Below are positions 33,869-64,000 of a DNA stretch of 64,000 bases, one piece after another (within the stretch, counting starts at the first letter, position 1; the number at the start of each line of letters is the position of its first letter). Both the position numbers and the translations under genes were made by a program. Below the pieces are notes generated by a model, which was given only the letters and a program-made list of their open reading frames with translations, searched no databases and was not told the DNA's origin. Source of the stretch: Lingula anatina (lineage: Eukaryota; Animalia; Brachiopoda); contig CM120644.1 of assembly GCA_051362555.1 (NCBI GenBank), forward strand, positions 8,502,954 through 8,566,953, in the 5' to 3' direction.

Positions 33869-36800
33869 TTTTTGACAAGAAAATGAACAAATTTTCCTAT
33901 CCATTGCTGGATATAAGGTCTAACTCGTATGTTACAGCATATGAAGGTACCCCAAGTCCCCATCCCCCCTAACACACCTAAGTATGCCTATGGAAGAGTG
34001 AACATGATGCTGGTAAGACCAGAAATTGCCATAATAATTGAAGCCAGAAAAGTCTAATAAAATATCAGTTTAAATAGTCTACAGTTACCATTTATGTCTA
34101 TGACAATGACAGACAGGTTGTAAAATGTCAGTGCATTTCTTACATGGAATTTTATCTTCAAAAGTATCTTTTAAATTGGAGAAACCTGTCAATTTTTTCT
34201 TTTGTTTATTCAAGTTTTGTGCTTCTGTAACTTCTGTTTTCAGATGTCCACTGTTCCTAATCTATTGGACAAGCTGACCCACCATGGCCCTTTTGTCACT
34301 AGGTACCCTCTTACCATGGAACAAGTCTACCAGGTGGGTTACTCATCACCTCTTTGATAACTAATTGGTGTTCTTTAATTCTTAGATGATTTAATTTAAG
34401 TAACACTGCCGAGTGATTTTATCATAGCTATGTCCTAAGATATTAGTTTCTAATTCAACAACTTGGGGCTTGACACTTACTTTTTTTTTCTCTTTTTTCT
34501 CCAATGGCCTTCAGGCCAGTCAAGTCTGGTAAATATTACAAGTCTTTGAGTTACTTTGTGCATTAGATTGTATTTGCCTTTCATGACAGTAACCCCTGTA
34601 ATTCACTGGCCTAAGATTGGTTTTCAGTGGTCCTGGGTTAGCGGGATACCTATTATGTTGAGCCCTGCAACTTACTGTGGTTGTTTAAGAGTAATGATGG
34701 TACTATATCAGAACTATTGTTTTATATTTTACAAACAAACATGGTTCTTTTCCAGAACTATGGTTTCATATACTATCGTCATGTGGTGAAGTTAGACTGG
34801 CACAATGCAGTGCTGGATGTCTCTGCAGTACGAGACAGGGGATATGTTTTGATTAACAGTGTAAGTTATTAATGATTTTCAAGTTTTCTGTATGATTATT
34901 GTAAAGAAGAGATGAGAACTATATTGAAAAAAATCATAAAGAGACAAGGCAGCAAAGCTGTCAAATGTACAGACAAAAAGCAGACAATAACAATGCACAA
35001 AACAGGCTACTGTCAATTCTGATGCAAAAGTACATTATGCTTAACTGCAAATTCAACATCAAATTTTAATTATGCTCAACAGGTAATACCAATGTAAGTG
35101 AAATGTGTAACAAGCGTAAGGCTTCAGGCCCATGGGAGTTTAAGTTCACACTTTGAAAATGCCAGAATGAGAAAAATGAAAATTTCACATAAAACTGCTT
35201 AAATTCAATAATAAATGATAACCCATTTGAGCTGGCTTTCTAATTTGAACTGCATGCCAATCCTACAAATCATACTTGTAAGTTGAAAATAATAATAAGT
35301 AACACAGTTTTCTTTTCATAATGTTTGTAGTAGCAGTGCAAAAAGATTTTTGTCAATTTTGATGTAACACTACATAATAAATTACAGAATAATTATCACC
35401 AATTTTTGACTATTGACTATAAATAGCATGGACATGTAGAAAATTTGATTACCATTTGGCTTCATGTCCATGGGAGCTTCGAGTCCCACAATGAATATAC
35501 CAACATGATAAAAATGAATATTTCACTAAAATGTATAACTTCCAGAAAAAGAAGCCAATTAGACTGCTTTTCCAACTCAGGCTGCATTTTAGTCCTTTGT
35601 TTCTTTTTTGAAAGTTTGACAATCATAAGTAACATGGTTTTCCCATAATGGTCATCATGGCAGCAGCACCCAAAATTGTTTTTTCTTCTATTTTAATGCA
35701 ATATTACATAATGCTTAACAGCATAATGACCATCAGTTTTTAATAATAAAAGATCCGTATCGTGGATTTCCAGAAAATGTGATTAGCATGGGTCTTCAAG
35801 CTCGTGGAGGTTCTAAGTCACACCTTGAAAATGCCAATATGTGAAAAATTAAATTTTCACAAAAAACTGATTAACTGCCAAAAAAATTTACCAAATAGTC
35901 TGCATTGCCCACTGAAGCTTTATTTAAGTCCCATGTTTCTTCCTGTAAGTTTGAGAACAGAAAGTGACATGGTTTTCCTTAAATGGTCATCATGGGAGCA
36001 GTGTCCAAAATAGGGGTGTCTTCAAATTTTGATGCACTATTACATAATGTTTAACAGGATAATTACCATCAATTTTTAATAATAAAATATTAGTATCATG
36101 GATATTCAGAAAATGTTCCTAGCAAAGGTCTTTAGGCCAAAGGAACTTCAAAGTCACACCTTGAAAATGCCAAAATGTAGACAAGACAGCACTGTCCTGA
36201 AATGTGTTTTTTTCCATTTTTAACACTTTTTTAACATATAACAAAATTAACAATTTACTGCTATTTATATATGATCAACTAAGAAAATTGATGAGATGGG
36301 AAAAATATCAATAGAACAGTGTTTAATGTCCAATTTCCTCCATTCTGAGTTTCTGAACATAGTGAATGAATGAATCTGACAAACTGCAATGATATGAGTT
36401 TATTTCCATTTTTGAAACACTATTATACAATACATGATAACAAGTTTACCATCATTTTTACATAATTAACTAACAATGTTGTAAAGATGCAGGAAATGTC
36501 AAACAAACACTTTTACGAATCTTATTAGTTAAATAATGAGACTGTTAACATGCCTAAGAATTGAATCTGAGGAAATGTTTAAAAACAGCATAACTTATAA
36601 AATAATGGCCCGATTATGCTGATTTTCGAACTTGACCTACGTTTTAGTAAGATTGATTACTCCTGTGAGTTTCATGACAACAGGTCTATCAGTTTTCCTT
36701 GAAATGTGTTAACAGTGTTGCACATATGCTGAAAAGTGAAAAAAACAGCATAACTACTAAAATAGTGGCCCGATCATGCCGATTTTCGAACTTGATCTGC

Positions 36801-39293
36801 GTTTTAGTAAGATTAATTACTCCTGTGAGTTTCATGACAACAGGCCTATCGGTTTTCCTTGAAATGTGTTAACAGTGTTGCATATATGCTAAAAAGTGAA
36901 AACACAGCATAAATACTACAATAATTGCCCAAACATGCTGATTTTCGAACTTGACCTGCGTTTTATGAATATTCATCAGCTCTGTAAATATAAAGCCAAA
37001 AAGTAAAACTGTCTTCCACTTATTGTGTTAACGATGAAAGTGCACGGCGACGGCGACGGCGACAGGGACGGCGACAGGGACGGCGACGGCGACGACAGAC
37101 GCAGGTGATGGCAATATGTACAGACACATCTGTGTCTGTGCATAATAATATAGTGAAAAAAGGGGGATTTATTTTTTACTAATCTTTATTTCAAAACCGC
37201 TTGTTTTAGTACAGCTTCAGACTAAACAATACCACATCAAACCTAATCAGCATTTTATTCAGAAAACAAATATTCTTGAGACCAAGGTCGTATATATATC
37301 AGCTATTCTTAAACTTTTTCTAAAACACAGTGACTAGGTACAACATAAGTACAAATATTGCTTTTATAAGTGTTCTTATTAGATATATGATATGAAGGTA
37401 ATAATAATGACAGTTTAATGTCCCAGGTACCTCAAGGTGTGGTCATCAGGGAGTCCAGCCAGACTAAACTGACCATCACAGCCCTGACTGGCCAGTATCT
37501 GGACATCCTGGTGGAAAACCAGGGGAGGATTAACTATGGGTCAGGCATCAACAATAACACCAAGGTACAAGATGGAGGATTAAAACCATAGAATTTGGAG
37601 GGAAATCTGTAAATTTTTACTTTATTTGGGAACAGCTGGACATTAACAGTAACAATAAGTTACCAAAGTGAGATTACCCCCCCCCCCAAAAAAAAAAAAA
37701 AAAAAAAAAACTCAGCAATTTAAGGAACATTGTAATACAAAAATTACTCTGAGGTAACAAATTAGAGAGTTTGTAAGTATTGGCAATTTTCAAAGTTTTA
37801 CAGTATTTTGAATTTGTACTATTTAATTGGGTTTAAGAAAATTTTTATCTTATTGATGTTATTCAATAACATGTTTAAGTTACACGAAACTATTTTTAAT
37901 CCAGATATTGTTAGAAACTACATGACATTAATCCTGCAGATTTCAATATAAGTTGCACTATACAGTGAAATCTCATTTTGTTCATTTGAAAATTCAAATG
38001 AAAGTGATTGATTCAGAAGTTCAGTATGTATTTTTTGGTTTGATAATGTGTACAGGTTGTTGAATTTAAACCAATATAACAGTTGTTCATGTTCAATTTC
38101 AGGGTCTGATTGCTAATGTTACTATAAATGGACTCATCCTGAAAGATTGGTTTATATATCCACTGAATGTGTCAGAAAAGGTGCTTAATAACCTGGACTC
38201 AGCAGTCCAGTCCAAACAAAGGTAGTGCATAGAAATCTTTCCGTTGATCTATCTCAAGGTTGTCAAAACTTTTGATTGATAGTGATAGGGATTGTTTATT
38301 GTTGGAGTAGAAAAAGTGTCAATTTTAAGTAATTCAGTGACAGTTACACCTCATCTTTTAATTTTCATTGAACTTTCTTTGAATTATGAAACTTGAACAT
38401 TTCCATATTATGAAAGTTACTAGTCTTATAGACTAAGTACTGTAGCAAAACTTTGTTTACTCTGCAAATTCCTAGTCATTAAAAAGATTAGAAAGTTTTT
38501 TTAATGAGAGGAGATTGGGATTCTATAATGGTTAAATATGATAAAGATGTAATTGTGATTGTAGTGATCTTTATTTATTTATTTATTTATTTATTTGTTT
38601 ATTTATTTATTTATTATCAGTTCTCCTCCCAAGTATTCTGGTGTCAGCCAGTACATTACTCCTTCCTTATTTGTGGGCCAGATCCAGATGCCCAACAAAA
38701 CTGGGTTCCCACAGGATACATACCTCAGGACTGATGGCTGGTTTAAAGTAAGTGAAATAACTTCAGTTGTATAGTCAAGCCAATCTCCTGTCACTTTACT
38801 CTGCAACAGAGGCCCTTTTATGTGTAGCTGTTACAAAATCAGTTGAAGGTCCTTCCTTCAACAAATTTAATTGTGACTGGTAATACAAATAGAAGGGCTT
38901 CTGGCAGAGAGTGCCTTCGGACTAATAAGTCTCTCAGACTGCCAGTTAGCAATCTCATTGCTGTCTTGACGCATTCTCATGATGAAACTTTTTTTCTTTC
39001 AGGGCCAGGCCTATGTCAATGGGTTTAACCTGGGGCGGTACTGGCCCAGTGCAGGCCCCCAGCTGACTCTCTATGTCCCCAAGGGGGCCCTCAGGCCCTA
39101 CCCCGCCACTAACACACTGGTGCTCCTAGAGCTGGAATATGCTCCATGTAGCCAGACACGAAATGAGATTGAGGTGGACTACTGCTTTGTGGAGTTTGTG
39201 ACCACACCTGTTATCAATGCCACTACTGTTAGTCTGGAGAGGAGGGAGGAATGGAATAGGGCTGGGGGATTTAATTGGCATGATCAGCATTAA
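27224..39293 (+). CDS. GLB1: Lysosomal beta-galactosidase (GH35), 17 exons, 673 aa
   Basis: Exons 27224-27301, 28673-28842, 29379-29529, 29975-30038, 30380-30474, 30992-31172, 31709-31767, 32381-32502, 32867-32907, 33348-33463, 33938-34012, 34244-34333, 34756-34860, 37427-37564, 38103-38221, 38621-38747, 39003-39293 (2022 nt, open frame). Signal peptide, [24 protein letters not shown] (acid/base Glu), [13 protein letters not shown] (nucleophile Glu), [36 protein letters not shown]. Confidence 0.96.
27612..28340. mobile_element. Non-autonomous DNA transposon in GLB1 intron 1
   Basis: Terminal inverted repeats TAGGTATATCA / TGATCTACCTA, flanked by the direct repeat GTTAAGA (27605-27611 and 28341-28347). 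Confidence 0.7.
32929..33185 (+). mobile_element. Non-autonomous Helentron-like element (HINE/DINE-1 type)
   Basis: Subterminal inverted repeats acctccaccaag (32932-32943) / cttggcggaggt (33148-33159), a (GTCT)n microsatellite near the 5' end, a gatccggatc core, and a short 3' hairpin followed by ttttctagt. Confidence 0.75.
35630..36180. repeat. Two diverged tandem copies with ~336-bp period in GLB1 intron 13
   Basis: acatggttttcc..aatggtcatcatgg..aagtcacaccttgaaaatgccaa starts at ~35632 and again at ~35967; a third fragment lies near 35142. Confidence 0.7.
36170..37147 (-). mobile_element. Helentron/pearl-like element carrying a ~160-bp satellite array
   Basis: Units with 159-160 bp period (cagcataa at 36586, 36746, 36905), then a (GACGGC)n tract at 37045-37100 and a terminal hairpin tatgtacagacac-atct-gtgtctgtgcata at 37115-37144. 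The left boundary is uncertain. Confidence 0.65.
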
Positions 39294-43449: not shown

Positions 43450-44490
43450 TCATTTTTGAAACCCAAGCAAACGCTTTAATCTTTGTCGGAATAATGAACC
43501 GCATAGTCCGTAAACGAAAAAATTAACTGACGAGTTCAGACTTGCTAGAAGAAACCCAGTGGGTGTTGTCCAGCTTTCAATGACTGCAATGATCTCAAAC
43601 TGTCCGGCCATATGATCCATGACAGCCAAAACAAGGAATATAAGAGTAACAGGTAACACAGCTAATATATAAAATGTCATCAGTAACATTACCGTTTTTA
43701 TTATCTGCCTGAAATTATCATTTTTTGAATTGTTCATTGTCAGTCGAATTTCAGCTTGCCTCCTCAAGGACTGAATAAGCTTCACGTATAGAAAAAGCAT
43801 GAACCCATTTGGTAAAATGTTGAAAATGAGAGGAAACGCCTTGCGGTAAACAAGTTCATGGCTGTTGGTCCATTCCTTTAAACGAACATCCAGGCAGAAG
43901 TCACCCGAGCTGTATCCACAAGGAAGAAATCCAACAATTTCAGTGTCAAAAAACTTCGGAAATTGATACATTGTGATCATGGTTAATAACACGTACGTCC
44001 TCCATCTCCATTTTGACACCTTTCGAAACTCAATGCTTTTTACAGGTTTGTCAATTGCGAGATAACGATCGAATGCTACAAAAACTAGCAGAAAAACGGA
44101 AGAAAGTCTTGCAATTAGCATGATTGGCCAAATATAAACGGTGATCGGCTGCATTGCGACAAAGTACCAGTCAATCCACCCTGAATACACATGCAAAGCA
44201 GGTAAATGAACGATAAATATCGCCGTGATTAAATATATATTATCCGTGATTGCTATCCAGGATAGTAAATAATCAGCCGATACATTTGCTCTCTCCTTAA
44301 AGAATACAAGGAAAGACAGGGTGTTGCAAATCATTCCAATCAGACCAACGGCCAATGATGCGAATCCTAGAACAACGACGGTGTACAAGTTTAAGGCCGT
44401 TCGATGATTGGTGGTGCCATTGACTAGCGTACTGTTCAATGAAAATGCCGTGAAATTCAATTCATCTTTATCGTCAATGAAAGTTGCCAT
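43450..44490 (-). CDS. Intronless class A GPCR (FMRFamide/sex-peptide-receptor-like, possibly chemosensory), 346 aa
   Basis: Seven hydrophobic segments, N-terminal glycosylation sequons, GMICN (TM1), IAITDN (TM2), AFDRYLAI (TM3), YQFPKFF, NSSVNFFVY (TM7), FRQRL helix 8. Confidence 0.92.
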   Translation of the reverse strand: MATFIDDKDELNFTAFSLNSTLVNGTTNHRTALNLYTVVVLGFASLAVGLIGMICNTLSFLVFFKERANVSADYLLSWIAITDNIYLITAIFIVHLPALHVYSGWIDWYFVAMQPITVYIWPIMLIARLSSVFLLVFVAFDRYLAIDKPVKSIEFRKVSKWRWRTYVLLTMITMYQFPKFFDTEIVGFLPCGYSSGDFCLDVRLKEWTNSHELVYRKAFPLIFNILPNGFMLFLYVKLIQSLRRQAEIRLTMNNSKNDNFRQIIKTVMLLMTFYILAVLPVTLIFLVLAVMDHMAGQFEIIAVIESWTTPTGFLLASLNSSVNFFVYGLCGSLFRQRLKRLLGFQK

Positions 44491-44560
44491 TTTGTTTAAA
44501 TAGGAAATAAGACGTGAAGCAAACCTGTCTTAACAATAATTGTACTTATGAAGCTGAGCC

Positions 44561-45295: not shown

Positions 45296-45379
<84 letters not shown>

Positions 45380-45468
45380 CTGTCGATTTGGCCGGCTTAA
45401 ATGTCTGTCACGCCTAGTAAAGCTGTTTGGGTATATATATATCTCATATATATATCATATATATATAT

Positions 45469-45498
<30 letters not shown>

Positions 45499-45499
<1 letters not shown>

Positions 45500-45701
45500 C
45501 ATATGTTTAAATGGGGAACTATAGAGTCAATGATCAAATACTAATAGTCCCTCGATATATATGTTTTGATTTATTGTCGTGAAATATATGAAATGCTTTT
45601 CGACAAGTGGACAAAACGTTGCATTGATACCGTTTAGCCTCTAAATGCACCAGATTGGCAATTTGCTTGTTAATATAAACCAATAAATAAATAAATAAAT
45701 A
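45499..45701 (+). repeat. ~200-bp direct repeat, copy 1, upstream of the C1q gene
   Basis: Identical by eye to 47821-48023 (offset 2322). The ORF track gives the same peptide at both places. Confidence 0.95.
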
Positions 45702-45995
45702 TATATATATATATAATGATTGGCCAAGGTTTGAGGGGATATTACAGATTACAGTAATTACAGTGATAAATTTAGGGACGTACGAGAACAAGAAATAAAT
45801 CAACTATTATATCATTACTGTATCATTAATTCAACATTTAGAAATAATTTCCTGATTGACAATAACAATTTTCAATTATAAGCGATTGCATAGAGAATTG
45901 AGAATCACCGGCACAACCCGGATTTTTCTAAAAAACACCGATCATAAAAGTCCTTGAGCTCTTAGACTGGGTTCCCATACATAGATCGATCCATC

Positions 45996-46190
45996 TGGAT
46001 CGATCTTACTCCCTGGGGAGTCTCACTAAATTGCTGTCAACTAACCGGCTTAAATGTCTGCCACGCCTACCGCATCAGCTAGGGGGTAAAGATAATTACC
46101 CCCTAACAGCTTTTCTCGGCGTGACAGACATTTAAGCCGGCCAAGTTGACAGCAATTTAGTGAGACTCCCCAGGGAGATAGATCGATCCA
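45996..46190. mobile_element. Foldback (long palindromic) MITE, PIF/Harbinger-like
   Basis: Arms of ~95 bp, e.g. ctccctggggagtctcactaaattgctgtcaact / agttgacagcaatttagtgagactccccagggag, centred near 46093. A partial arm copy lies at 45376-45430 and a possibly related end near 52760-52830. Confidence 0.8.
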
Positions 46191-46789: not shown

Positions 46790-47603
46790 ATGAGCTCAAG
46801 CGCCGTGTTAGTTGTACTGCTGGTGGCAATGCTGGAAGTGTGTGCGTGCTCTGGTATGTACTACAAGGTTTTGTCACTTTAAATTGTGTAAATCATTAAA
46901 ACTCTGTTTTAAATAATTACAATTTTAGTTTAGTAACAATTTTTATGCAAAGCGGACAAACTGTAATGGTGACAGAAGAGCAGATGAAACTGCAGCACTG
47001 AAGCATTGGTAACGAAGGCCCTATCGGCTATAATAGATTGTAAACTAACATGTAGGCCTACAGCAGTTTTTGTTTATGTACTAAAATTCTGAAATAATAT
47101 TATGCAGGTTTAGTTGATTCCAATCTCCATTTCCTCTAATACTAGATTTACAGAGATGCACTGCAGCCTACAAACTAGTAGCGTTCTCGGCAGGGAGATC
47201 AAACGATCTTGACCAGACGGGGAAAGGGAACGCTGTGGTTGTCTACGACACCGTCTTTCTGAACGATGGCAACGGTTATAATAAAGACACGGGGAAATTC
47301 AATTCACCGACCTCAGGGGTCTACGTCTTCCATTACCATAGTCTCAGCCAAAACAACAAGCCCGTATTTGTCAGATTGAACCACAATGGCCAAATAAAGA
47401 ATACTGGGTACGGTAAACCTTCTACGGGGTTTGCGACAGGCAGTAATACTATTGCTTTGCGGCTGGCAGAGGGAGACGAGGTGTGGATTGATTTAGTTGG
47501 CGGCAACGCCCTTCACAACCATCCTGGGGAGTTCCACAGCACGTTCACCGGTTACCAGCTCTATCCAGACAACAGCAGCATTAACACCGTGGCTTTCCAT
47601 TGA
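46790..47603 (+). CDS. Secreted globular-head C1q-domain protein (no collagen), 173 aa
   Basis: Exon 46790-46853 (signal peptide MSSSAVLVVLLVAMLEVCACS) joined to exon 47146-47603. gC1q motifs VAFSA, YDTVFLNDGNGYNKDTGKFNSPTSGVYVF, GSNTIALRLAEGDEVWI, STFTGYQL. Likely 5' UTR intron 46311-46778. Confidence 0.92.
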
Positions 47604-47820: not shown

Positions 47821-48005
47821 TCATATGTTTAAATGGGGAACTATAGAGTCAATGATCAAATACTAATAGTCCCTCGATATATATGTTTTGATTTATTGTC
47901 GTGAAATATATGAAATGCTTTTCGACAAGTGGACAAAACGTTGCATTGATACCGTTTAGCCTCTAAATGCACCAGATTGGCAATTTGCTTGTTAATATAA
48001 ACCAA

Positions 48006-48023
<18 letters not shown>
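47821..48023 (+). repeat. ~200-bp direct repeat, copy 2, downstream of the C1q gene
   Basis: Identical by eye to 45499-45701. Confidence 0.95.
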
Positions 48024-48040
<17 letters not shown>

Positions 48041-48612
48041 ATGTTCTTGTCAAATATACTGAAAGGCGGCGCTACAGAAATAATTCAAAGAAGCAATATT
48101 AATTATCTGAATAATATTTTTTTAGGTTGGTTTATTGCTTCGATATACTTCCAACAAACGTAGTATCATAACATGGCGTTTCCGAAAAAAAAACATCAGA
48201 CGAGAACGGTTATGTGCAGAATCATAAAGGGTCCTGTAACAGTGACACAACACACACACATACACACACACACACAGGAACACCCGGCACACCGCTGCTG
48301 GAAACTAAAATTGATAATTGATAATTTTGATATCAACCTGACTGTGATGTACTGTATATAGATAACTTTATCAAACAATACATCACTAAGTTATTAGCTT
48401 GCGCCATGGCCTTGGTATATCATTATAGGGTTGGGGCGTTCTGGCTATGTCCTCATTATTGACAAAATAAACTGATTGTAGACAAATTTGAAGCAGTATA
48501 GATAACCTATAAAATGATATATAAAGCGTACGCAACGGTTTTGGCAGCACTACAGCGGGGCAGCCGGCATGTAGGCGCGGGGCACTGTGCCCACTCTGGG
48601 CGCTAATCTACT

Positions 48613-50811
48613 ATGGTAATGGCTTCGAAAGAGATGTACAACGTCTTCAGTGAGAACTTTTTAACATGTCATGTGTGTTTTGAAGAATATAAAGACCCGA
48701 GAGTGCTTCCCTGTTACCACACGTTCTGCCTGGAATGCATTGCTGACCATGCAGCCAAGAATGGTGTCCAGAACAAGTTCTCCTGTCCCTTGTGTCGCCA
48801 AGAGGCCCCCGTACCTCCAGGTGGGTTAGCAACTCTCGTGAAAAACTTCTTCCTTACAAAAGTAACAGACTTCATGAAAGATCTGAAAACCCCAGAGGGG
48901 AGACTTTGTGAGTATTGTAAGCATAAAGAGGCCATTTTGCTGTGCCAAGGTTGTCCCAAAACTAACCAATTGTGCGCTACATGCCGTGAATTGCATGACA
49001 GCATTCCGGCATTAAATGGACATCACTTTGTACCTTTATCACAATTCGATTTCTCAGTTAACCCATCTAACATCCGTGAACAATTACGTCACGTATTAGA
49101 TAAAGCTCAATACTGCGACAAACACGACGGCGAGTTGCTAACATTATATTGTGAAGAGGATGACACCGTGGCATGCAGAGATTGTATTTTAGAAACTCAC
49201 AGTAAACATGACTTTAAAAAAATTGGAGATGTGGTGAAGGGTCAACGGGAGTTAATACAAGAAAAACTGAGATGTCTCCCAAGTGCAAAGCCGTCTCATT
49301 ATGAAATTGCAGAGAAAGCCATTGTACGAACGGAAGAGAGGCTGACAGAAAATCAGTCAAACGTACTTAGTTTGGTGGATTCTCAAAAATTAGCTATGAC
49401 GAAGGAGATAATGGAAAACAGTGAAACCATTGAAAGAGAACTAAGCACTTATTACCAACAAGTAGAGAAAGACGTACGTCGACAGATCGACGAGTATTTA
49501 ACAAGTATGAAACACCATTTGGAAACGTACCAAACAAAAGTACTGTCAGATTATATCGAAATGCAGAAAGTTATAGATGACAAAAGCAACGAAATAACGG
49601 CCGAAGTTATGGCACTCACCTCCACGCAGTTGAAGACTTTAGAAGCTGAAAAGGACAAGCAAGAAATTGACAAGATTTCCATCCAGAGCATTCGTGAATT
49701 CGCCCAGCAGCTCACAACCAACGGATCTGCCATCGAGGTCATGACCCACTCTAAAAAACTCCAAGCTAGAATCCAGGAGTTGCAGACAGTAGAACCAGTC
49801 TTTGATACCAAGATCACCGACGTAACATTAACACCAGGTCTAACAGAAATGGACCGTGTGCTACAGTTTCCTAAAATCCCTGAACCAAAACCGCTGTCCA
49901 TCAAAACAGGGTCCATCACGGCCAAAACATACCGCGGTCCCTTGGATGCATGTTTTGGAAGTTTGAAACAAGAGGTAGCGCACTGTCCCGAGCTGATGTG
50001 TTTTCAGAAGGCAACATGGTTTGGCACTCCAGAGCGGAAATTTTGTTTTAATATTAAGGGCTGGCCACTGTGGGACATCCAGTGTACAGATGACGGGTGT
50101 ATTTTAGTTGGACATAGTGATGCAGTGTCAGTTTTCTCCAGTGCAGGTAAATGTAAGCGTAAAATCAGTATAGAGGGAGGCGGAAGGCGTATCGCTATAA
50201 TCAGTAACGATACATTCGTGGTCATATGCCGTGATGAATGCTGTAGACTGTATTCAACATCAGGCCATGTTACCCGGTGTTTTGGTCAGGGTGATATGTC
50301 TTACCCCTGGGGAGTCACTGTGGACCGTACAGAGGGTAAGGTGTACGTGTGTGATTGTGGTGCACAGTGCATCTGTGTGTACGACATGACATCTTTTCAT
50401 CTTGTTAACAGAATTGCTATCCCAATGTGCAGTAAAGACACACTGCGCTGTGCATACCACCACGGCATCAATGCAATCATAGTCAGCGACCGCTTGGCCC
50501 ACTGTGTGTATGCAGTGACACCCCAGGGTGACGTCATGTTTCAATACGGAGCACGAGGTCAGAGTGGAAGTGGAGACGGACAACTGAGTTATCCACGAGG
50601 AGTGTGCGTAGATAAATTTGGACAAATGTTTATAGCTGACCGTGATAATGACAGGGTGGTTGTCCTTGGTCTAGACGGAAAATTTTTACGTAACATTTTG
50701 ACAAAAAGCGACAACACTGAGCTGCCTTTGTCCGTCTCTATCGCCAGTAACGGGGAGCTTGTTGTTGGATCCGCCAGAGGAAAAGTATCCACGTATAAGT
50801 ACATCGCTTAG
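48613..50811 (+). CDS. Intronless TRIM-NHL E3 ligase-like protein (TRIM2/3/56/71-like), 732 aa
   Basis: RING CHVC..LPCYHTFCLEC..CPLC, B-box1 CEYC..CQGC..CATC..H..H, B-box2 CDKH..YCEED..CRDC..H, long coiled coil, NHL repeats (PWGVTVD, GSGDGQLSYPRGVCVD..IADRDNDRV). Confidence 0.93.
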   Translation: MVMASKEMYNVFSENFLTCHVCFEEYKDPRVLPCYHTFCLECIADHAAKNGVQNKFSCPLCRQEAPVPPGGLATLVKNFFLTKVTDFMKDLKTPEGRLCEYCKHKEAILLCQGCPKTNQLCATCRELHDSIPALNGHHFVPLSQFDFSVNPSNIREQLRHVLDKAQYCDKHDGELLTLYCEEDDTVACRDCILETHSKHDFKKIGDVVKGQRELIQEKLRCLPSAKPSHYEIAEKAIVRTEERLTENQSNVLSLVDSQKLAMTKEIMENSETIERELSTYYQQVEKDVRRQIDEYLTSMKHHLETYQTKVLSDYIEMQKVIDDKSNEITAEVMALTSTQLKTLEAEKDKQEIDKISIQSIREFAQQLTTNGSAIEVMTHSKKLQARIQELQTVEPVFDTKITDVTLTPGLTEMDRVLQFPKIPEPKPLSIKTGSITAKTYRGPLDACFGSLKQEVAHCPELMCFQKATWFGTPERKFCFNIKGWPLWDIQCTDDGCILVGHSDAVSVFSSAGKCKRKISIEGGGRRIAIISNDTFVVICRDECCRLYSTSGHVTRCFGQGDMSYPWGVTVDRTEGKVYVCDCGAQCICVYDMTSFHLVNRIAIPMCSKDTLRCAYHHGINAIIVSDRLAHCVYAVTPQGDVMFQYGARGQSGSGDGQLSYPRGVCVDKFGQMFIADRDNDRVVVLGLDGKFLRNILTKSDNTELPLSVSIASNGELVVGSARGKVSTYKYIA

Positions 50812-59956: not shown

Positions 59957-61104
59957 TTCAAGCCATGGTCTTTTTAGCAAACGTGTTTTAATAAATAACA
60001 ATCAAGAAAATCATAAAAAAAATATATATATATTGACAATACCTCCAGGACATTGCAAAATCCTTTGGATTACGAGAAACGGGTTCAGTACGTCCGTCTC
60101 TAGTCAGGAAGTCGTCGCTCTTGTCATGGTTTAGGGTTCCACACAATCCAACTGTTCTGTTAAAATCCTTAGCTCCAGGATGAATCTGAACATTCATGAA
60201 GTCGTCGTGTCCATATCGATAGACCATTATGTCAACATAGCCTCCAGTGGGTAAGTAAACCTTGAAAATAATATTTCAGTGAGAAGTTCCTAACAATCTG
60301 TCTGGACAATTATGAGATTTTTAAAGAAATGTACTCTTTTGTCTCTACTGCTCAGTTAATCATTATAAAATCAGCATATCTATTTGTTAATATGACATTG
60401 ATGTTTGTGTCTCTGGCTTATAAGTTCATTGAAAAAATAATGATTGTTTCAGACTTTTTCAAAGAAGCTAATAATGTAAAAAATTCACTGAAAAGTGAAA
60501 TTTCGATTTAACTGATACCATCCAATGATTGGACTTGTTCAACATAGGCAACAATACCTTAAAATGCTTTCCACCGTTTAAAGACTCCACCCTCAGTTGC
60601 CCGTCCTCGCACCCAACGAGTCCAACTCGCATTGGTCTCTTGGCTGTGATTTGCTCCAGTCCCGTGCCAGGTTTACATGTGTCCACTATGAAGACGTCTC
60701 CCCCGGACATCACGCCCACAGCACAATTACAGTATGCGTAGCCGCCATTGCAAGGTTTGAAAAAAGCATGTACCTAAAACATTACAATTTGAAGAAGAAA
60801 TCAACGGTTCGTGCTACGTTTTTCATGAAGGATCTAAGAGGAGATATTATCGCACGAGAACTCTTTTAATTTGTGTCCATTTTATACCTTTGAATGAAAC
60901 CCTGATTCTGCCAGAGCCTTTTTGGGATGTTCTAATACTTCAAAGTATTAACACAAATTCAAAGAAAGAGTTTTAAAATACGACATGTGGAGTTTGACAA
61001 ATGACAGAATTGGTGAATGAAAACAAACATAATATTTTACCTGAACTGGTAATGTGGTATGTTTATACAAAACAAATTCACCTCCGTACTGGCATTCGTA
61101 GTTG
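53991..61104 (-). CDS. VWD- and EGF-domain type I membrane protein (VWDE-like), 5' exons outside window
   Basis: Exons 61041-61104, 60558-60773, 60043-60260, 58818-59112, 58267-58416, 57764-57950, 57432-57622, 56813-57076, 56413-56523, 55824-55934, 55260-55374, 54782-54938 (or 54908), 53991-54270 join in frame. VWD motifs [97 protein letters not shown]; tail with PPPDY. Confidence 0.88.
59158..59769 (-). mobile_element. DNA transposon derivative with ~70-bp TIRs, 8-bp TSD and a RecQ-like helicase fragment
   Basis: TIRs at 59158-59230 and 59695-59769 (caccctgag..cctcttcactatagcct..gtgtcaa.ttacctctgac). TSD GGGCTCCG at 59150-59157 and 59770-59777. ORF 59321-59572 contains LKPEQFEAL...DVFCVLPTGYGKSLIF (SF2 Q motif plus Walker A). 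Confidence 0.8.
59770..59906. mobile_element. Short MITE interrupted at its left end by the helicase-bearing element
   Basis: Inverted arms gggctccgttaacttgaaagcatcgcgaattgcga / tcgcaattcgcgatgctttcgagttacggagccc. Confidence 0.75.
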
Positions 61105-61446
61105 CTATAATGTCAAAAATATATTTGAACAGATTATTGATACAATATGGATATATTGTTTCAACATGGATCTATAAATTAATAATAAAAGCATCGTGGA
61201 GACCTTGATTTGTGTGCGAGTGAGGGAGTAGTTGTGTTGTAATTTATCTAATCATACTTAAGAATTTTTTAAAACATTCAATATTGATGCCATGACCAGG
61301 TGTATGTACATAAATGCATATCTCCGTATACAGAAAATGTTGCGTTTGCCTGCGTTAATAAAATTGTGACAATAAATTTAATTTAATATGGGTAAGTGTA
61401 TGTTTGCAAGCAAAGCAAGCAAATGCTTTTGGTAGGCTATAAGACC

Positions 61447-61912
61447 TGTTATTATAGTGACAACAACGACGATCTGGAGCTTCAGATATTTATTCCCCAC
61501 ACTCAATTTTTCACAGAATCTACAAGTATTTATATTCTATTTTCCATTCTCATATTTCCCATTCTCATATTACAAAACTCTATTCAATATTTCCTAATTT
61601 AGTAATTTAAATGAAACTTGTTTATGATTTAAAATATTTAAAATATTTTCCGAATTACTCATTTTGGATCCTGTCCAATTCAAGTATACATGAGTTCTAC
61701 ACGTGTTAAACACGCGCAAATCGATAGAAAAATTAACCAATCGGATCCAACTATTTCGGACTCTGAAACGTTCCACCCTTTCCATCTTCGAGAACAGTCT
61801 CTACACTCGTTGACACTTTAAGAAATTTACTTTGTACTCGATAACTTTCTACACATTTGATTCTGTTTTAATTGTTTTGTAATTGCCGAAAGTGTATGTC
61901 ATTTGCTTTACA
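61447..61912 (-). repeat. 3' LTR (466 bp)
   Basis: Starts TGTAAAG just after the PPT and ends ATAACA. TATAAATA at 61527-61534 and AATAAA at 61489-61494. Both boundaries coincide with the limits of similarity to the solo copy at 42674-43180. Confidence 0.8.
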
Positions 61913-61980
61913 ACATACACCCCTTCTTCAAAAGAATTCGTCCTCGAATTCTAAAACTTTACAACATACGCCCCTTTTTC
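61913..61980 (-). other. Doubled polypurine tract with an intervening hairpin
   Basis: GAAAAAGGGGCGTATGTTGTAAAG and GAAGAAGGGGTGTATGTTGTAAAG, 51 nt apart, separated by AGAATTCG-AGGA-CGAATTCT (61933-61952). Confidence 0.75.
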
Positions 61981-62091
61981 ATTTTTTTTAAAGCAAAACT
62001 AAATAATATCAAATTTGTAAATTAACAAAACTAACCATGCTATCGTAATGTAGTAAAAGATCCCTTACAAAAACAATCTATGCTGCATGCA

Positions 62092-62649
62092 TTAATGTTC
62101 AATGTATTTACAAATAGGACAATGTGCCACTGTACTGATAGTAAGATCAGAACAAATTCCATTCCTTGTAAATTTAAGAGCAAGTCGTCGAAATCGAGTA
62201 TACGTCATTTCTCGATCATCATTCATCAATAATTCATGATAATGCTTAACAGGAATATTCAAACGTCGCAATAATAGTACAGTAACTACAACTAACTTAG
62301 TAACACTCCATGCATAATATAAAGATTGAATAATACATTTACCAAAATCTAATGGTATTTGATGCAACATGTATATCATGTAATCTTCAGATATCATCAA
62401 ATAATGAGCACAGCCAATTAACTTCATAAAGTCCAACTTCTCGTCTAGGTTATTAAACCTTCCACAAAATGCAAACAAAATTGATTCATTTATCAAATCA
62501 GATGAAAACTTAATCTGAAAATTCGGTTCTCTTTGTTGTTTGAAGTATAATTCATTTATATATACAGAATGTTTACGGAAGTTCTCGAAAAGCTTAAATG
62601 ACAAAGTTACAATTCTGTCATCAATGTAAATGTGATGTACAAGTTTCAT
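62092..62649 (-). CDS. Accessory ORF with a divergent BTB/POZ-like domain, 185 aa from the ATG at 62649
   Basis: HSVYINELY...ESILFAFCGRF...FMKLIGCAHYLMISE follows the BTB pattern S-x-YF / ll-x-F-x-Y-x-G / LL-x-aA-x-yL-x-i. C-terminal HCPIC. Preceded by a polypyrimidine tract and CAG acceptor (62656-62658). Confidence 0.65.
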   Translation of the reverse strand: MKLVHHIYIDDRIVTLSFKLFENFRKHSVYINELYFKQQREPNFQIKFSSDLINESILFAFCGRFNNLDEKLDFMKLIGCAHYLMISEDYMIYMLHQIPLDFGKCIIQSLYYAWSVTKLVVVTVLLLRRLNIPVKHYHELLMNDDREMTYTRFRRLALKFTRNGICSDLTISTVAHCPICKYIEH

Positions 62650-63159
62650 CAGTTTCTGCAAAATCAAATAGAAAATAAGAAAAATGATAATAGACATATT
62701 TACAAAATCATAATTGTTAAAAAAAAAAAACTCTAAGTACAACCATTAATATTCATAACATAGTAAAGTAAGTACAATACAGCATGCAAATAATAATGAT
62801 CATGATTAACACAAAAAATCCTAATTATATATAAGTGATATGTAATAGATTTTATAAAAGCGCAAATAATCGTATTACATTATTCATAAAATAGTATATA
62901 GTGATTAAAACAAATTCAATTTTTGTTAAAACTCATCGAGTTAATTCTGTGCGTCTCGCACACTCTCAATAATAATAATACATAGATCAGTTTCTTCAAT
63001 CATTGGAGTAACAGTGAGAAAAACTCAATCATAAAGTCATTAAAATGCTGTGATAGTACACACACCCTCTTACACCAAAAGTCCGCTCGCAAAGATCAAT
63101 GCACTTAGTAAATACTAGACACATGTAGCAAGTCAAGTCAAATTTAACTTGGACAAAGA

Positions 63160-64000
63160 TTAATCTGCATTGTGATCAAATGGCTCAAACTGAATATAGA
63201 AAAGTGCATTAGCATGTTTAATGCGCAAAAATGCATAATATTCACTCTTGAGTAATTTTCTGAGTTTAAAAGCTGTGACCATAGACAATGGGATAGCTCG
63301 TTCCAAAGTGATGATTTCGTTAGTTATAAGGTTTGTAATTTGCAGACCATGCCAATCTATTGTTAGGTGTGGACTGTAGGTACCTTCAACCTTTAAAATA
63401 TCAAAGTACGATTCATGACTTTGAAAAACCCAGTACTTTGGACATAATGACAGTTTTCTGATAGGAACCGAAATACATTGTTCATTGTTGGAAATCTCTA
63501 AAACCAGAGCATTTCTCTTAGACTTAAAGAATGTTCTCCTAATATGTCCCACAAGGAAAATCAAGAAGATAATGGTAATTACAATTTGCATTATTAAAAT
63601 AGGAAATGTCATTGAATCCGTGATAATCAGTACCTTCGGCTCATTACTATTTGTTTTTGTTGTGGAATCTAGTAACCAATACGGCATAGTAGGAACTATA
63701 TCGTTTCCACGTGCCTTCTTCAGCAAAGCCACTATAATTGCCAATTGCCTGACCTTGATTCCTAGGCAAATTATTATCACGAGCAATAAGCCCGACAACC
63801 CTATTGAAATCCAAACCAGTATTTGAGAAAAATCATCTGTAGAAAATATTTCGTCTGCTAGAATAGCATCTGCCATAGAAGAATAGATTTGCTCCTGACT
63901 TTTTGCTGCTTGAGCCATTTTTTGTAAGCTCAAATGATCAACTGAATCTTTCGCAAGGAAATGGGAAAAATTATGTTGAAATAATTGAAGAACATTCGAT
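63160..64000 (-). CDS. C-terminal part of an env-like multi-membrane protein, open to the window edge
   Basis: Frame is open from 63999 (SNVLQLFQHNFSHFLAKDSVDHLSLQKMAQ...). Amphipathic helix, TM1 ILVWISIGLSGLLLVIIICLGI, signal-like LAIIVALLKKARG, S/T-rich spacer, TM2 FPILIMQIVITIIFLIFLV, and a ~130-aa beta-rich tail. It lies in the env position upstream of the PPT/LTR. Confidence 0.65.
   Translation of the reverse strand, partial: SNVLQLFQHNFSHFLAKDSVDHLSLQKMAQAAKSQEQIYSSMADAILADEIFSTDDFSQILVWISIGLSGLLLVIIICLGIKVRQLAIIVALLKKARGNDIVPTMPYWLLDSTTKTNSNEPKVLIITDSMTFPILIMQIVITIIFLIFLVGHIRRTFFKSKRNALVLEISNNEQCISVPIRKLSLCPKYWVFQSHESYFDILKVEGTYSPHLTIDWHGLQITNLITNEIITLERAIPLSMVTAFKLRKLLKSEYYAFLRIKHANALFYIQFEPFDHNAD

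Follow-up and report, generated by a model that had tools for sequence, protein, structure and literature searches.

The window analysed here, a stretch of 64 kb, is animal DNA, containing a TRIM-NHL gene, a rhodopsin-type receptor, a C1q domain and exons for a VWD domain. The TRIM-NHL gene is an intronless ORF of 734 codons with RING, B-box, coiled-coil and NHL regions (48607–50811, plus strand), possibly a retrocopy or a member of an expanded immune family. The receptor is encoded by a single-exon ORF (43450–44529, minus strand) and the C1q domain by an exon at 47118–47603 (plus strand). Tandem arrays with units of ~335 bases (3–4 copies) and 160 bases (3 copies) occupy 35106–37059. There is also a direct repeat of 215 bases with 99% identity (45499–45713 and 47821–48035, 2322 bases apart), near which lies an inverted pair (45373–45440 and 46092–46159), possibly a small young transposon. 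The accessory ORF that is the subject of this work sits at the end of the window, on the minus strand.

Read 5′ to 3′ on that strand, the order of features is the tail of an env-like ORF, a block of ~220 bases, an AT-rich spacer, the accessory ORF, a doubled purine tract and an LTR. The env-like ORF (63160–64000, minus strand) is open-ended, with 279 aa within the window, and encodes two hydrophobic segments (aa ~57–94 and ~123–158) followed by a soluble tail. Its label derives from its position and these two segments only, and it is presented as the putative 3′ end of an env-like gene. The tail matched no Pfam family above the cut-off and no longer homologue among 1675 candidates, and its protein (P0002) had zero matches in viral contigs and zero in metagenome contigs. 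The window stops at 64000, with the gag and pol of the element beyond it, and the class of the element is therefore one that we infer.

The block downstream of the env-like ORF (62940–63159, minus strand) is conserved among diverged copies of the element, as delimited by DNA and RNA depth and by loose ends at 62936/62940, and is deeper than the BTB ORF in the DNA runs. It holds the sole GTRAG donor-like site of 62660–64000, at 63073, together with a 32-codon ORF from an ATG at 63124 and a 20-codon ORF from an ATG at 63003. It may serve as a first exon, as an internal promoter or as an RNA element. The AT-rich stretch that follows (62669–62939, minus strand; 20% GC) is where diverged copies cease aligning, and RNA depth is 0 at 62700–62832; it is likely an intron or spacer.

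On the other side of the accessory ORF lie the doubled polypurine tract and the LTR start (61916–61980, minus strand). Two 10-base purine runs (61971–61980 and 61920–61929) are each followed by the same 10-mer (61966 and 61915), with a repeat spacing of 51 bases. In three of the four DNA runs, contig depth peaks at 61860–62001 and exceeds that elsewhere in the LTR; loose ends fall at 61997 and at 61888/61906, and this purine-tract block may be common to another, more abundant family. The 3′ LTR (61447–61915, minus strand) has the form TG...CA with AATAAA at 61489–61494. Its start is marked by many different flanks, while its end is placed from a collapse of depth below about 61434 and from the terminal bases TAACA ending at 61447. 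This arrangement, a polypurine tract leading into a TG...CA LTR that recurs at many places in the genome, is that of an LTR retroelement. In RNA run X18 only, many molecules start or stop at 61491–61500 and 336 reads exit the LTR at 61452 into other sequence, which is possibly a transcript begun or ended in an LTR copy at another locus.

A host exon encoding a VWD domain (PF00094, E 1.2e-7) was identified by Pfam at 60045–60275 (minus strand), and a second stretch of exons of the VWD gene lies at 60468–60773 (minus strand), downstream of the element and in the same orientation. The element is probably inserted in an intron of this host gene, on the same strand. Its acceptor, described below, and its LTR polyA signal could truncate the host gene; the depth of the VWD exons was 0 in four RNA runs.

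To follow the element through its copies, DNA contigs were aligned from 4 of the 11 listed runs (X1, X5, X6 and X10), which belong to four studies. Each run gave 295–344 aligned contigs, with identities from above 99% to below 90%. At 61915 the contigs diverge into unrelated flanks (agreement 0.49–0.54 in X1 and X6), and because they break there into many different flanks, this position was taken as the start of the LTR. The junction between LTR and flank (61223–61474) is present in DNA run X1 with no difference. Contigs cover the flank at 61150–61433 in X1 and X6 and leave it empty in X5 and X10. The haplotype that carries the insertion may be polymorphic, though a gap in contig coverage is no proof. 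The accessory ORF was covered by many contigs in all four DNA runs. Contigs from diverged copies, which were unaligned between about 62669 and 62939 in DNA and RNA alike, connect the ORF with the purine-tract region on one side and with the block above 62940 on the other, and since they link it to both neighbours, its position is a feature of the family in this species. The element is a multicopy LTR retroelement and the ORF is common to many of its copies. This bears out, on the 3′ side, the initial annotation of the locus, which had the ORF lying after an env-like ORF and before the 3′ LTR of a multicopy element, the supporting data being the purine tract, the LTR flanks and the repeat depth.

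That annotation had further expected the ORF to be intact in other copies, which held in part: it is present in 4/4 DNA runs, but many copies are frameshifted or deleted. A one-base loss at 62341 was found in 104 of 142 RNA reads of run X19. A deletion of 419 bases (62584–63002) that removes the start of the ORF was seen at low depth in RNA runs X18 and X19 and in DNA runs X1, X5 and X10, and is probably one old, widespread copy. The corresponding joint 62583–63003 (7 and 11 RNA reads) was considered as a splice and rejected, having non-canonical ends; it stands in DNA (X10, with related joints in X1 and X5), and because it is present in DNA contigs it represents a genomic deletion.

By ORF calling, the accessory ORF encodes 185 aa in this copy (P0001; 62092–62649, minus strand), with a copy-specific start and a stop-to-stop length of 217 aa. 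These 185 codons are open in DNA of 30% GC, and none of 1000 base shuffles of 61916–63160 reached 185 open codons (maximum 135). A rough test of selection was made on the 16 single-base differences listed within the ORF, which are a selected subset of more than 700 rows; six of the 16 were silent against a neutral expectation of 20–27% (p 0.08–0.25), an excess that is not significant.

Searches for relatives of the product gave a single homologue. P0001 matched 0 Pfam families, none of 74 candidates in a word-based search of 5.8 billion proteins, and only two rows among PDB sequences, both with E above 1. Using phmmer against 1.84 billion representatives, three matches were obtained, of which P0004 and P0005 were discarded for their repetitive multi-stretch alignments. 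The homologue, P0003, is a protein of 251 aa (E 3e-6), which is 36% identical over residues 7–113 and 33% identical over its whole length, and which likewise matched 0 Pfam families. A profile built from alignment A1 (see below) recovered only P0003 among 6645 candidates, with zero PDB sequences and zero metagenome contigs, and viral contigs gave zero matches for P0001 and zero for P0003.

The fold of the product was approached by structural modelling. A single-sequence model of P0001 (pLDDT 44) gave no BTB row in its fold searches, which were put aside as uninformative. A second model was based on alignment A1, consisting of P0001 with P0003 and P0006, and rests on two distinct sequences; its pLDDT is 82–92 over residues 1–60. 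The elements of this model are E4-9, E12-17, H18-26, H29-40, E46-48, H55-61, H73-83 and H88-97, an order that agrees with the BTB core topology as defined in PMC1257465. Codons 1 to ~99 (62353–62649, minus strand) are thus predicted, from the model, fold searches and ESM features, to encode a short-form BTB core (B1-B2-A1-A2-B3-A3-A4-A5), and the ~95-residue core of the SKP1/BTB/POZ fold is found in order in the model.

In a Foldseek search against the PDB the ten best rows were all BTB-containing chains, the best at E 0.025 and every E above 0.001. A search of viral folds was filled by mimivirus, cowpox and myxoma BTB proteins, with a mimivirus BTB/POZ protein as its top row (E 9.6e-4). Using VIA against 48,161 chains, 44 of the 50 best rows were BTB, POZ, T1, Skp1 or ElonginC chains, a count that includes Kv, Kelch13 and Skp1-complex rows as members of the SKP1/BTB/POZ fold. 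The top rows were NAC1 (Z 8.0, the best, with rmsd 3.4 and 91 residues aligned) and gigaxonin (rmsd 3.2, 89 aligned); no Z was above 8.1, and these values are middling. ESM features pointed to BTB clusters for P0001 (0.91) and for P0003 (22/30 matches, 0.92), to be read with the caveat that a third of shuffled proteins also receive ten agreeing families. The clusters nearest to P0003 were those of invertebrate 'BTB and MATH domain protein 36-like' proteins. Each of these lines is middling and it is their combined strength that counts; on this basis the product very probably has a BTB-type fold. The divergent BTB fold that had been proposed for residues 1 to ~100 is therefore supported by the homologue-based model, the fold searches and the ESM features, while the Pfam search that was to reveal it gave no match, neither P0001 nor P0003 reaching the gathering cut-off of PF00651.

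Residue 1 of the model aligns with residue 27–35 of the long-form NAC1, BCL6, PLZF and BACH chains, and for this reason the dimerising beta1/alpha1 of long-form domains is predicted to be absent. P0003 starts a few residues before B1, and an upstream exon could supply a beta1/alpha1 extension. Scores for the POZ, Cul3-adaptor, KCTD, T1 and Skp1 chains differ by no more than about 1 Z. The highest identities (18–21%, at Z 6.7–7.5) belong to Skp1 and KCTD15 rows. Over the Skp1 rows, residues 3–99 were aligned at Z 5.9–7.1 and 18–20% identity, the C-terminal helices of Skp1 falling outside the alignment.

Beyond the core, two helices are predicted for codons 100–129 (62263–62352, minus strand), at the place of the 3-box or of the Skp1 C-terminal helices. 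These helices (100–113 and 116–129), modelled with pLDDT below 50, align with KBTBD2, the SPOP BTB/3-box and KLHL22 to residue 133 or beyond. For the C-terminal half no substrate-binding family was matched in Pfam, and the fold searches barely reached past residue 133. The protein ends in a Cys/His tail (62095–62154, minus strand), and the cluster that had been noted there does exist, consisting of C166, H176, C177, C180 and H185; P0003 likewise ends in Cys/His clusters. This tail could be a metal-binding site, a candidate suggested by its residues in a part of the model where pLDDT is below 50. The predicted protein would comprise a BTB core without the elements for long-form dimerisation, followed by two helices, another helical part and the Cys/His tail.

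The initial annotation had derived this protein from a spliced RNA, and the pyrimidine tract and AG that it quoted as the acceptor are present in the sequence (62656–62676, minus strand; the alignment of expressed diverged copies reaches 62668). The AG ends at 62656, an exon would begin at 62655, and the ATG lies at 62649. This candidate splice acceptor has the most pyrimidines (15/20; next best 14) of the 43 YAG sites on the minus strand of 61916–64000, a lead of one base that is modest in AT-rich DNA. The hydrophobic N-terminus that follows from an ATG at 62697 had been read as a translated pyrimidine tract. This fits, since copies shorter by one base have it in another frame, a circumstance that led us to discard ATG 62697 as a signal-peptide start for the family.

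The start of the product at 62649 fared less well. In RNA reads the ATG base at 62648 differs in 35/35 reads of X18 and 56/56 of X19, and a one-base length difference at 62644–62647 is seen in both runs, carried at 62644–62646 by 35/35 X18 reads and 56/85 X19 reads. The same length difference is found in all four DNA runs, accounting in X1 for the whole depth at 62647 (382.3 + 198.3 of 580.6), and a high-depth X5 contig that carries it is otherwise separated from the window by two letters and a 4-base gap in the spacer. In the one-base-shorter frame there is a stop at 62710 and the next ATG is only at 62427 (codon 75). Only this copy has the ATG at 62649 in frame, and that ATG is a property of its sequence, being either a private allele or an assembly error. 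Because the common form has no in-frame ATG before codon 75, an upstream exon is needed for a whole BTB domain, and fusion to such an exon is likelier than a start at 62649.

RNA was taken from 4 of 9 runs, of each of which 6–26% was read; X18 and X19 are unstranded and come from one study. Aligned reads numbered 1199 for X18 and 1363 for X19; 2 and 5 of them reached ≥99%, and diverged copies supplied almost all the rest, while the stranded runs X12 and X15 gave 8 and 52 reads only. The junction at 62655 that had been foreseen is not among the three joints listed for these four runs, whose reads are mostly from diverged copies, and 31 (X18) and 43 (X19) reads cross the acceptor unspliced, aligning up to 62668. 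Such reads neither show nor refute splicing, because genomic and env RNAs and decayed copies would give them. A splice from the donor-like site at 63073 would bring ATG 63124 into frame (51 bases, phase 0) in this copy and not in shorter copies; zero reads showed it in the RNA runs examined. Of the proposed spliced mRNA, then, the acceptor is backed by reasoning from the common form that has no start codon before codon 75, but no splicing was seen.

The surface by which the protein might contact a cullin was compared with that of known adaptors. Cul3 adaptors carry a phi-x-E motif ahead of B3, with a large hydrophobic residue as phi. In KLHL3 this motif is M83-S84-E85, and A77E, M78V and E85A disrupt Cul3 binding (PMC3616122). 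At its inferred place in the accessory ORF, codons 39–41 encode Gln-Arg-Glu (62527–62535, minus strand), the register being derived from the KLHL3 spacing A77-M78-M83-E85 (PMC3616122) and from the position at the end of A2 and not from residue-level superposition. In this register Glu41, at the end of helix A2 before B3, would take the place of KLHL3 E85 and is kept in both P0001 and P0003. The phi place would be held by Gln39, also Gln in P0003 and hydrophobic in neither, and Glu33 of P0001 would fall at KLHL3 A77, where A77E abolishes Cul3 binding. In the poxvirus protein A55, a change at phi is tolerated better than in SPOP, and a change of the A77 equivalent to Glu kills binding (bioRxiv 10.1101/461806). 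Given Gln at phi and Glu at the A77 place, together with these A55 mutation data, binding of Cul3 in the canonical mode appears doubtful. The PxPN motif of Skp1, which lies at B3 (PMC1257465), is absent from P0001 and P0003. The step by which the protein was proposed to hijack Cullin-3 is without direct support and weakened, and the degradation of restriction factors by an accessory BTB protein is purely conjectural.

Among known systems, the accessory protein resembles vaccinia A55 (6i2m) as a virus-borne BTB fold, aligning with it at Z 6.4 over 91 residues. A55, a BTB-BACK-Kelch protein, keeps phi-x-D and dimerises (bioRxiv 10.1101/461806), whereas the accessory protein has Gln at phi. It also differs from poxvirus and mimivirus BTB proteins, the BTB-only and BTB-WD40 kinds included, in having no Kelch, WD40 or long-form N-terminus and in being borne by an LTR retroelement. 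With the Cul3 adaptors KLHL3, KLHL11, SPOP, KBTBD2 and gigaxonin it would share the BTB core, helices at the place of the 3-box and Glu at the inferred phi-x-E, but identity in structural alignments is 4–14%, phi is Gln, Glu stands at the KLHL3 A77 place, and alpha1/beta1 and a known substrate domain are missing. Its predicted core-only start (model residue 3 corresponding to Skp1 residue 2) would be like that of Skp1, the Cul1 adaptor, and of ElonginC, KCTD and Kv T1 domains, and Skp1 also has C-terminal helices; unlike Skp1, it has no PxPN and no Pfam Skp1 match, and ESM points to PF00651 clusters.

Complex retroviruses characteristically carry accessory genes 3′ of env, and the rv-cyclin gene of walleye dermal sarcoma virus occupies such a position. 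It is comparable as an accessory gene whose product has a host-type fold less than 20% identical to that of the host and whose RNA is multiply spliced (PMC3185748), but it encodes a cyclin fold, belongs to a vertebrate retrovirus and has a function proven by experiment. CERV of Cer1 in C. elegans is another extra gene of an LTR element, spliced and with a Cys-rich loop, but its exons are shared with gag (PMC10309623). The ORF3s of rotifer LTR elements (DEDDy, GDSL) are captured host-type folds too, but they take the place of env and do not lie 3′ of it (PMC5408684). The word BTB is absent from the available text of PMC10309623 and PMC5408684. Likewise BTB, POZ and ORF4 do not occur in the available text and seven supplement files of a survey of env-bearing Ty3/gypsy elements (PMC13524379; cells to 400 characters, and the sequences themselves could hide one). 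No BTB-fold gene of an LTR retroelement was found in the literature searched; an annotation of one in subscription journals or repeat databases is possible.

From these data we propose, at a probability of roughly 0.4, that the ORF is a short-form BTB-fold gene of the LTR family, likely spliced, whose product acts as an adaptor or decoy of a host cullin. The ORF stands before the 3′ LTR in copies from >99% to <90% identical and has one 36%-identical homologue. The gene would derive from an ancient capture of a host BTB gene, and a short upstream exon would be spliced onto the acceptor at 62656. The protein would contact a cullin through the A2-B3 loop and the following helices, the partner being Cul3, or Cul1 in the manner of Skp1, and its C-terminal half would recruit a target, unless the protein merely titrates the cullin. 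The full chain of events, in which a stripped-down BTB/Skp1-like adaptor is translated from a spliced subgenomic RNA, seizes or blocks a host cullin through a non-canonical loop and so disarms an anti-transposon defence, is a tentative proposal and on balance unlikely to hold in every part.

It is also possible, though again rather unlikely, that the protein is a regulator independent of cullins, whose BTB core self-associates or binds host BTBs and whose Cys/His tail binds nucleic acid or a partner. It would act on transcription of the element or on RNA export, in the manner of CERV of Cer1 or of rv-cyclin. The Cul3 motif being only half kept fits with this, as does the tie within about 1 Z between Cul3 adaptors and the NAC1, BCL6 and BACH2 POZ, KCTD15 and Kv T1 domains. 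T1 domains that consist of the core only form oligomers (PMC1257465), and regulation is a frequent role of spliced accessory genes in LTR elements and retroviruses (PMC10309623, PMC3185748). However, the model lacks beta1/alpha1 for dimerisation unless these are added by an upstream exon, Glu41 is conserved across 33% identity, and no nucleic-acid-binding fold is predicted.

Two further readings are each improbable. The ORF might be a mere passenger, a captured and decaying BTB fragment copied with the element to no benefit, and the silent fraction not clearly above neutral, the frequent frameshifts and deletions, the zero spliced reads in the RNA runs examined and the zero relatives in viral or metagenome contigs would all suit this. 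Against it, the ORF aligns across copies less than 90% identical where the adjacent spacer does not, its 185-codon frame in DNA of 30% GC is matched by none of 1000 shuffles, its full-length homologue has the same motifs and Cys/His tail, and it is too far from host BTBs for a recent capture. Alternatively, translation might start at an ATG of the ORF itself (62649 or 62697) and need no splicing, the RNA being a read-through product or initiated internally, with the AG incidental or a splice trap for the host VWD gene. The reads that cross the AG, with no listed joint there, agree with such expression, as do the one-base lead of the tract over other YAG sites and the sense orientation of the element in the VWD gene; yet in the common form each of the two ATGs is either missing or out of frame, and full-length and env RNAs are expected to cross the AG unspliced anyway. 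The crossing reads, moreover, derive nearly all from diverged copies, and since the VWD exons have no depth in the four RNA runs, trapping would be invisible there.

The picture is of an LTR element with an accessory gene whose fold was probably taken from a host long ago. Fold and family status are well supported, and the proposed function is a candidate one. Counter-defence through cullins and ubiquitin is known in large DNA viruses and lentiviruses. If the accessory protein does engage a cullin, counter-defence directed at the ubiquitin system would extend from these viruses to retrotransposons, and the target of the protein would identify a restriction pathway of a marine-type invertebrate host. 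It would then be the retrotransposon counterpart of poxvirus A55 and of the lentiviral proteins that hijack cullins. Even if no cullin is engaged, the accessory gene would indicate that such elements conceal deeply diverged host folds that are missed by Pfam.
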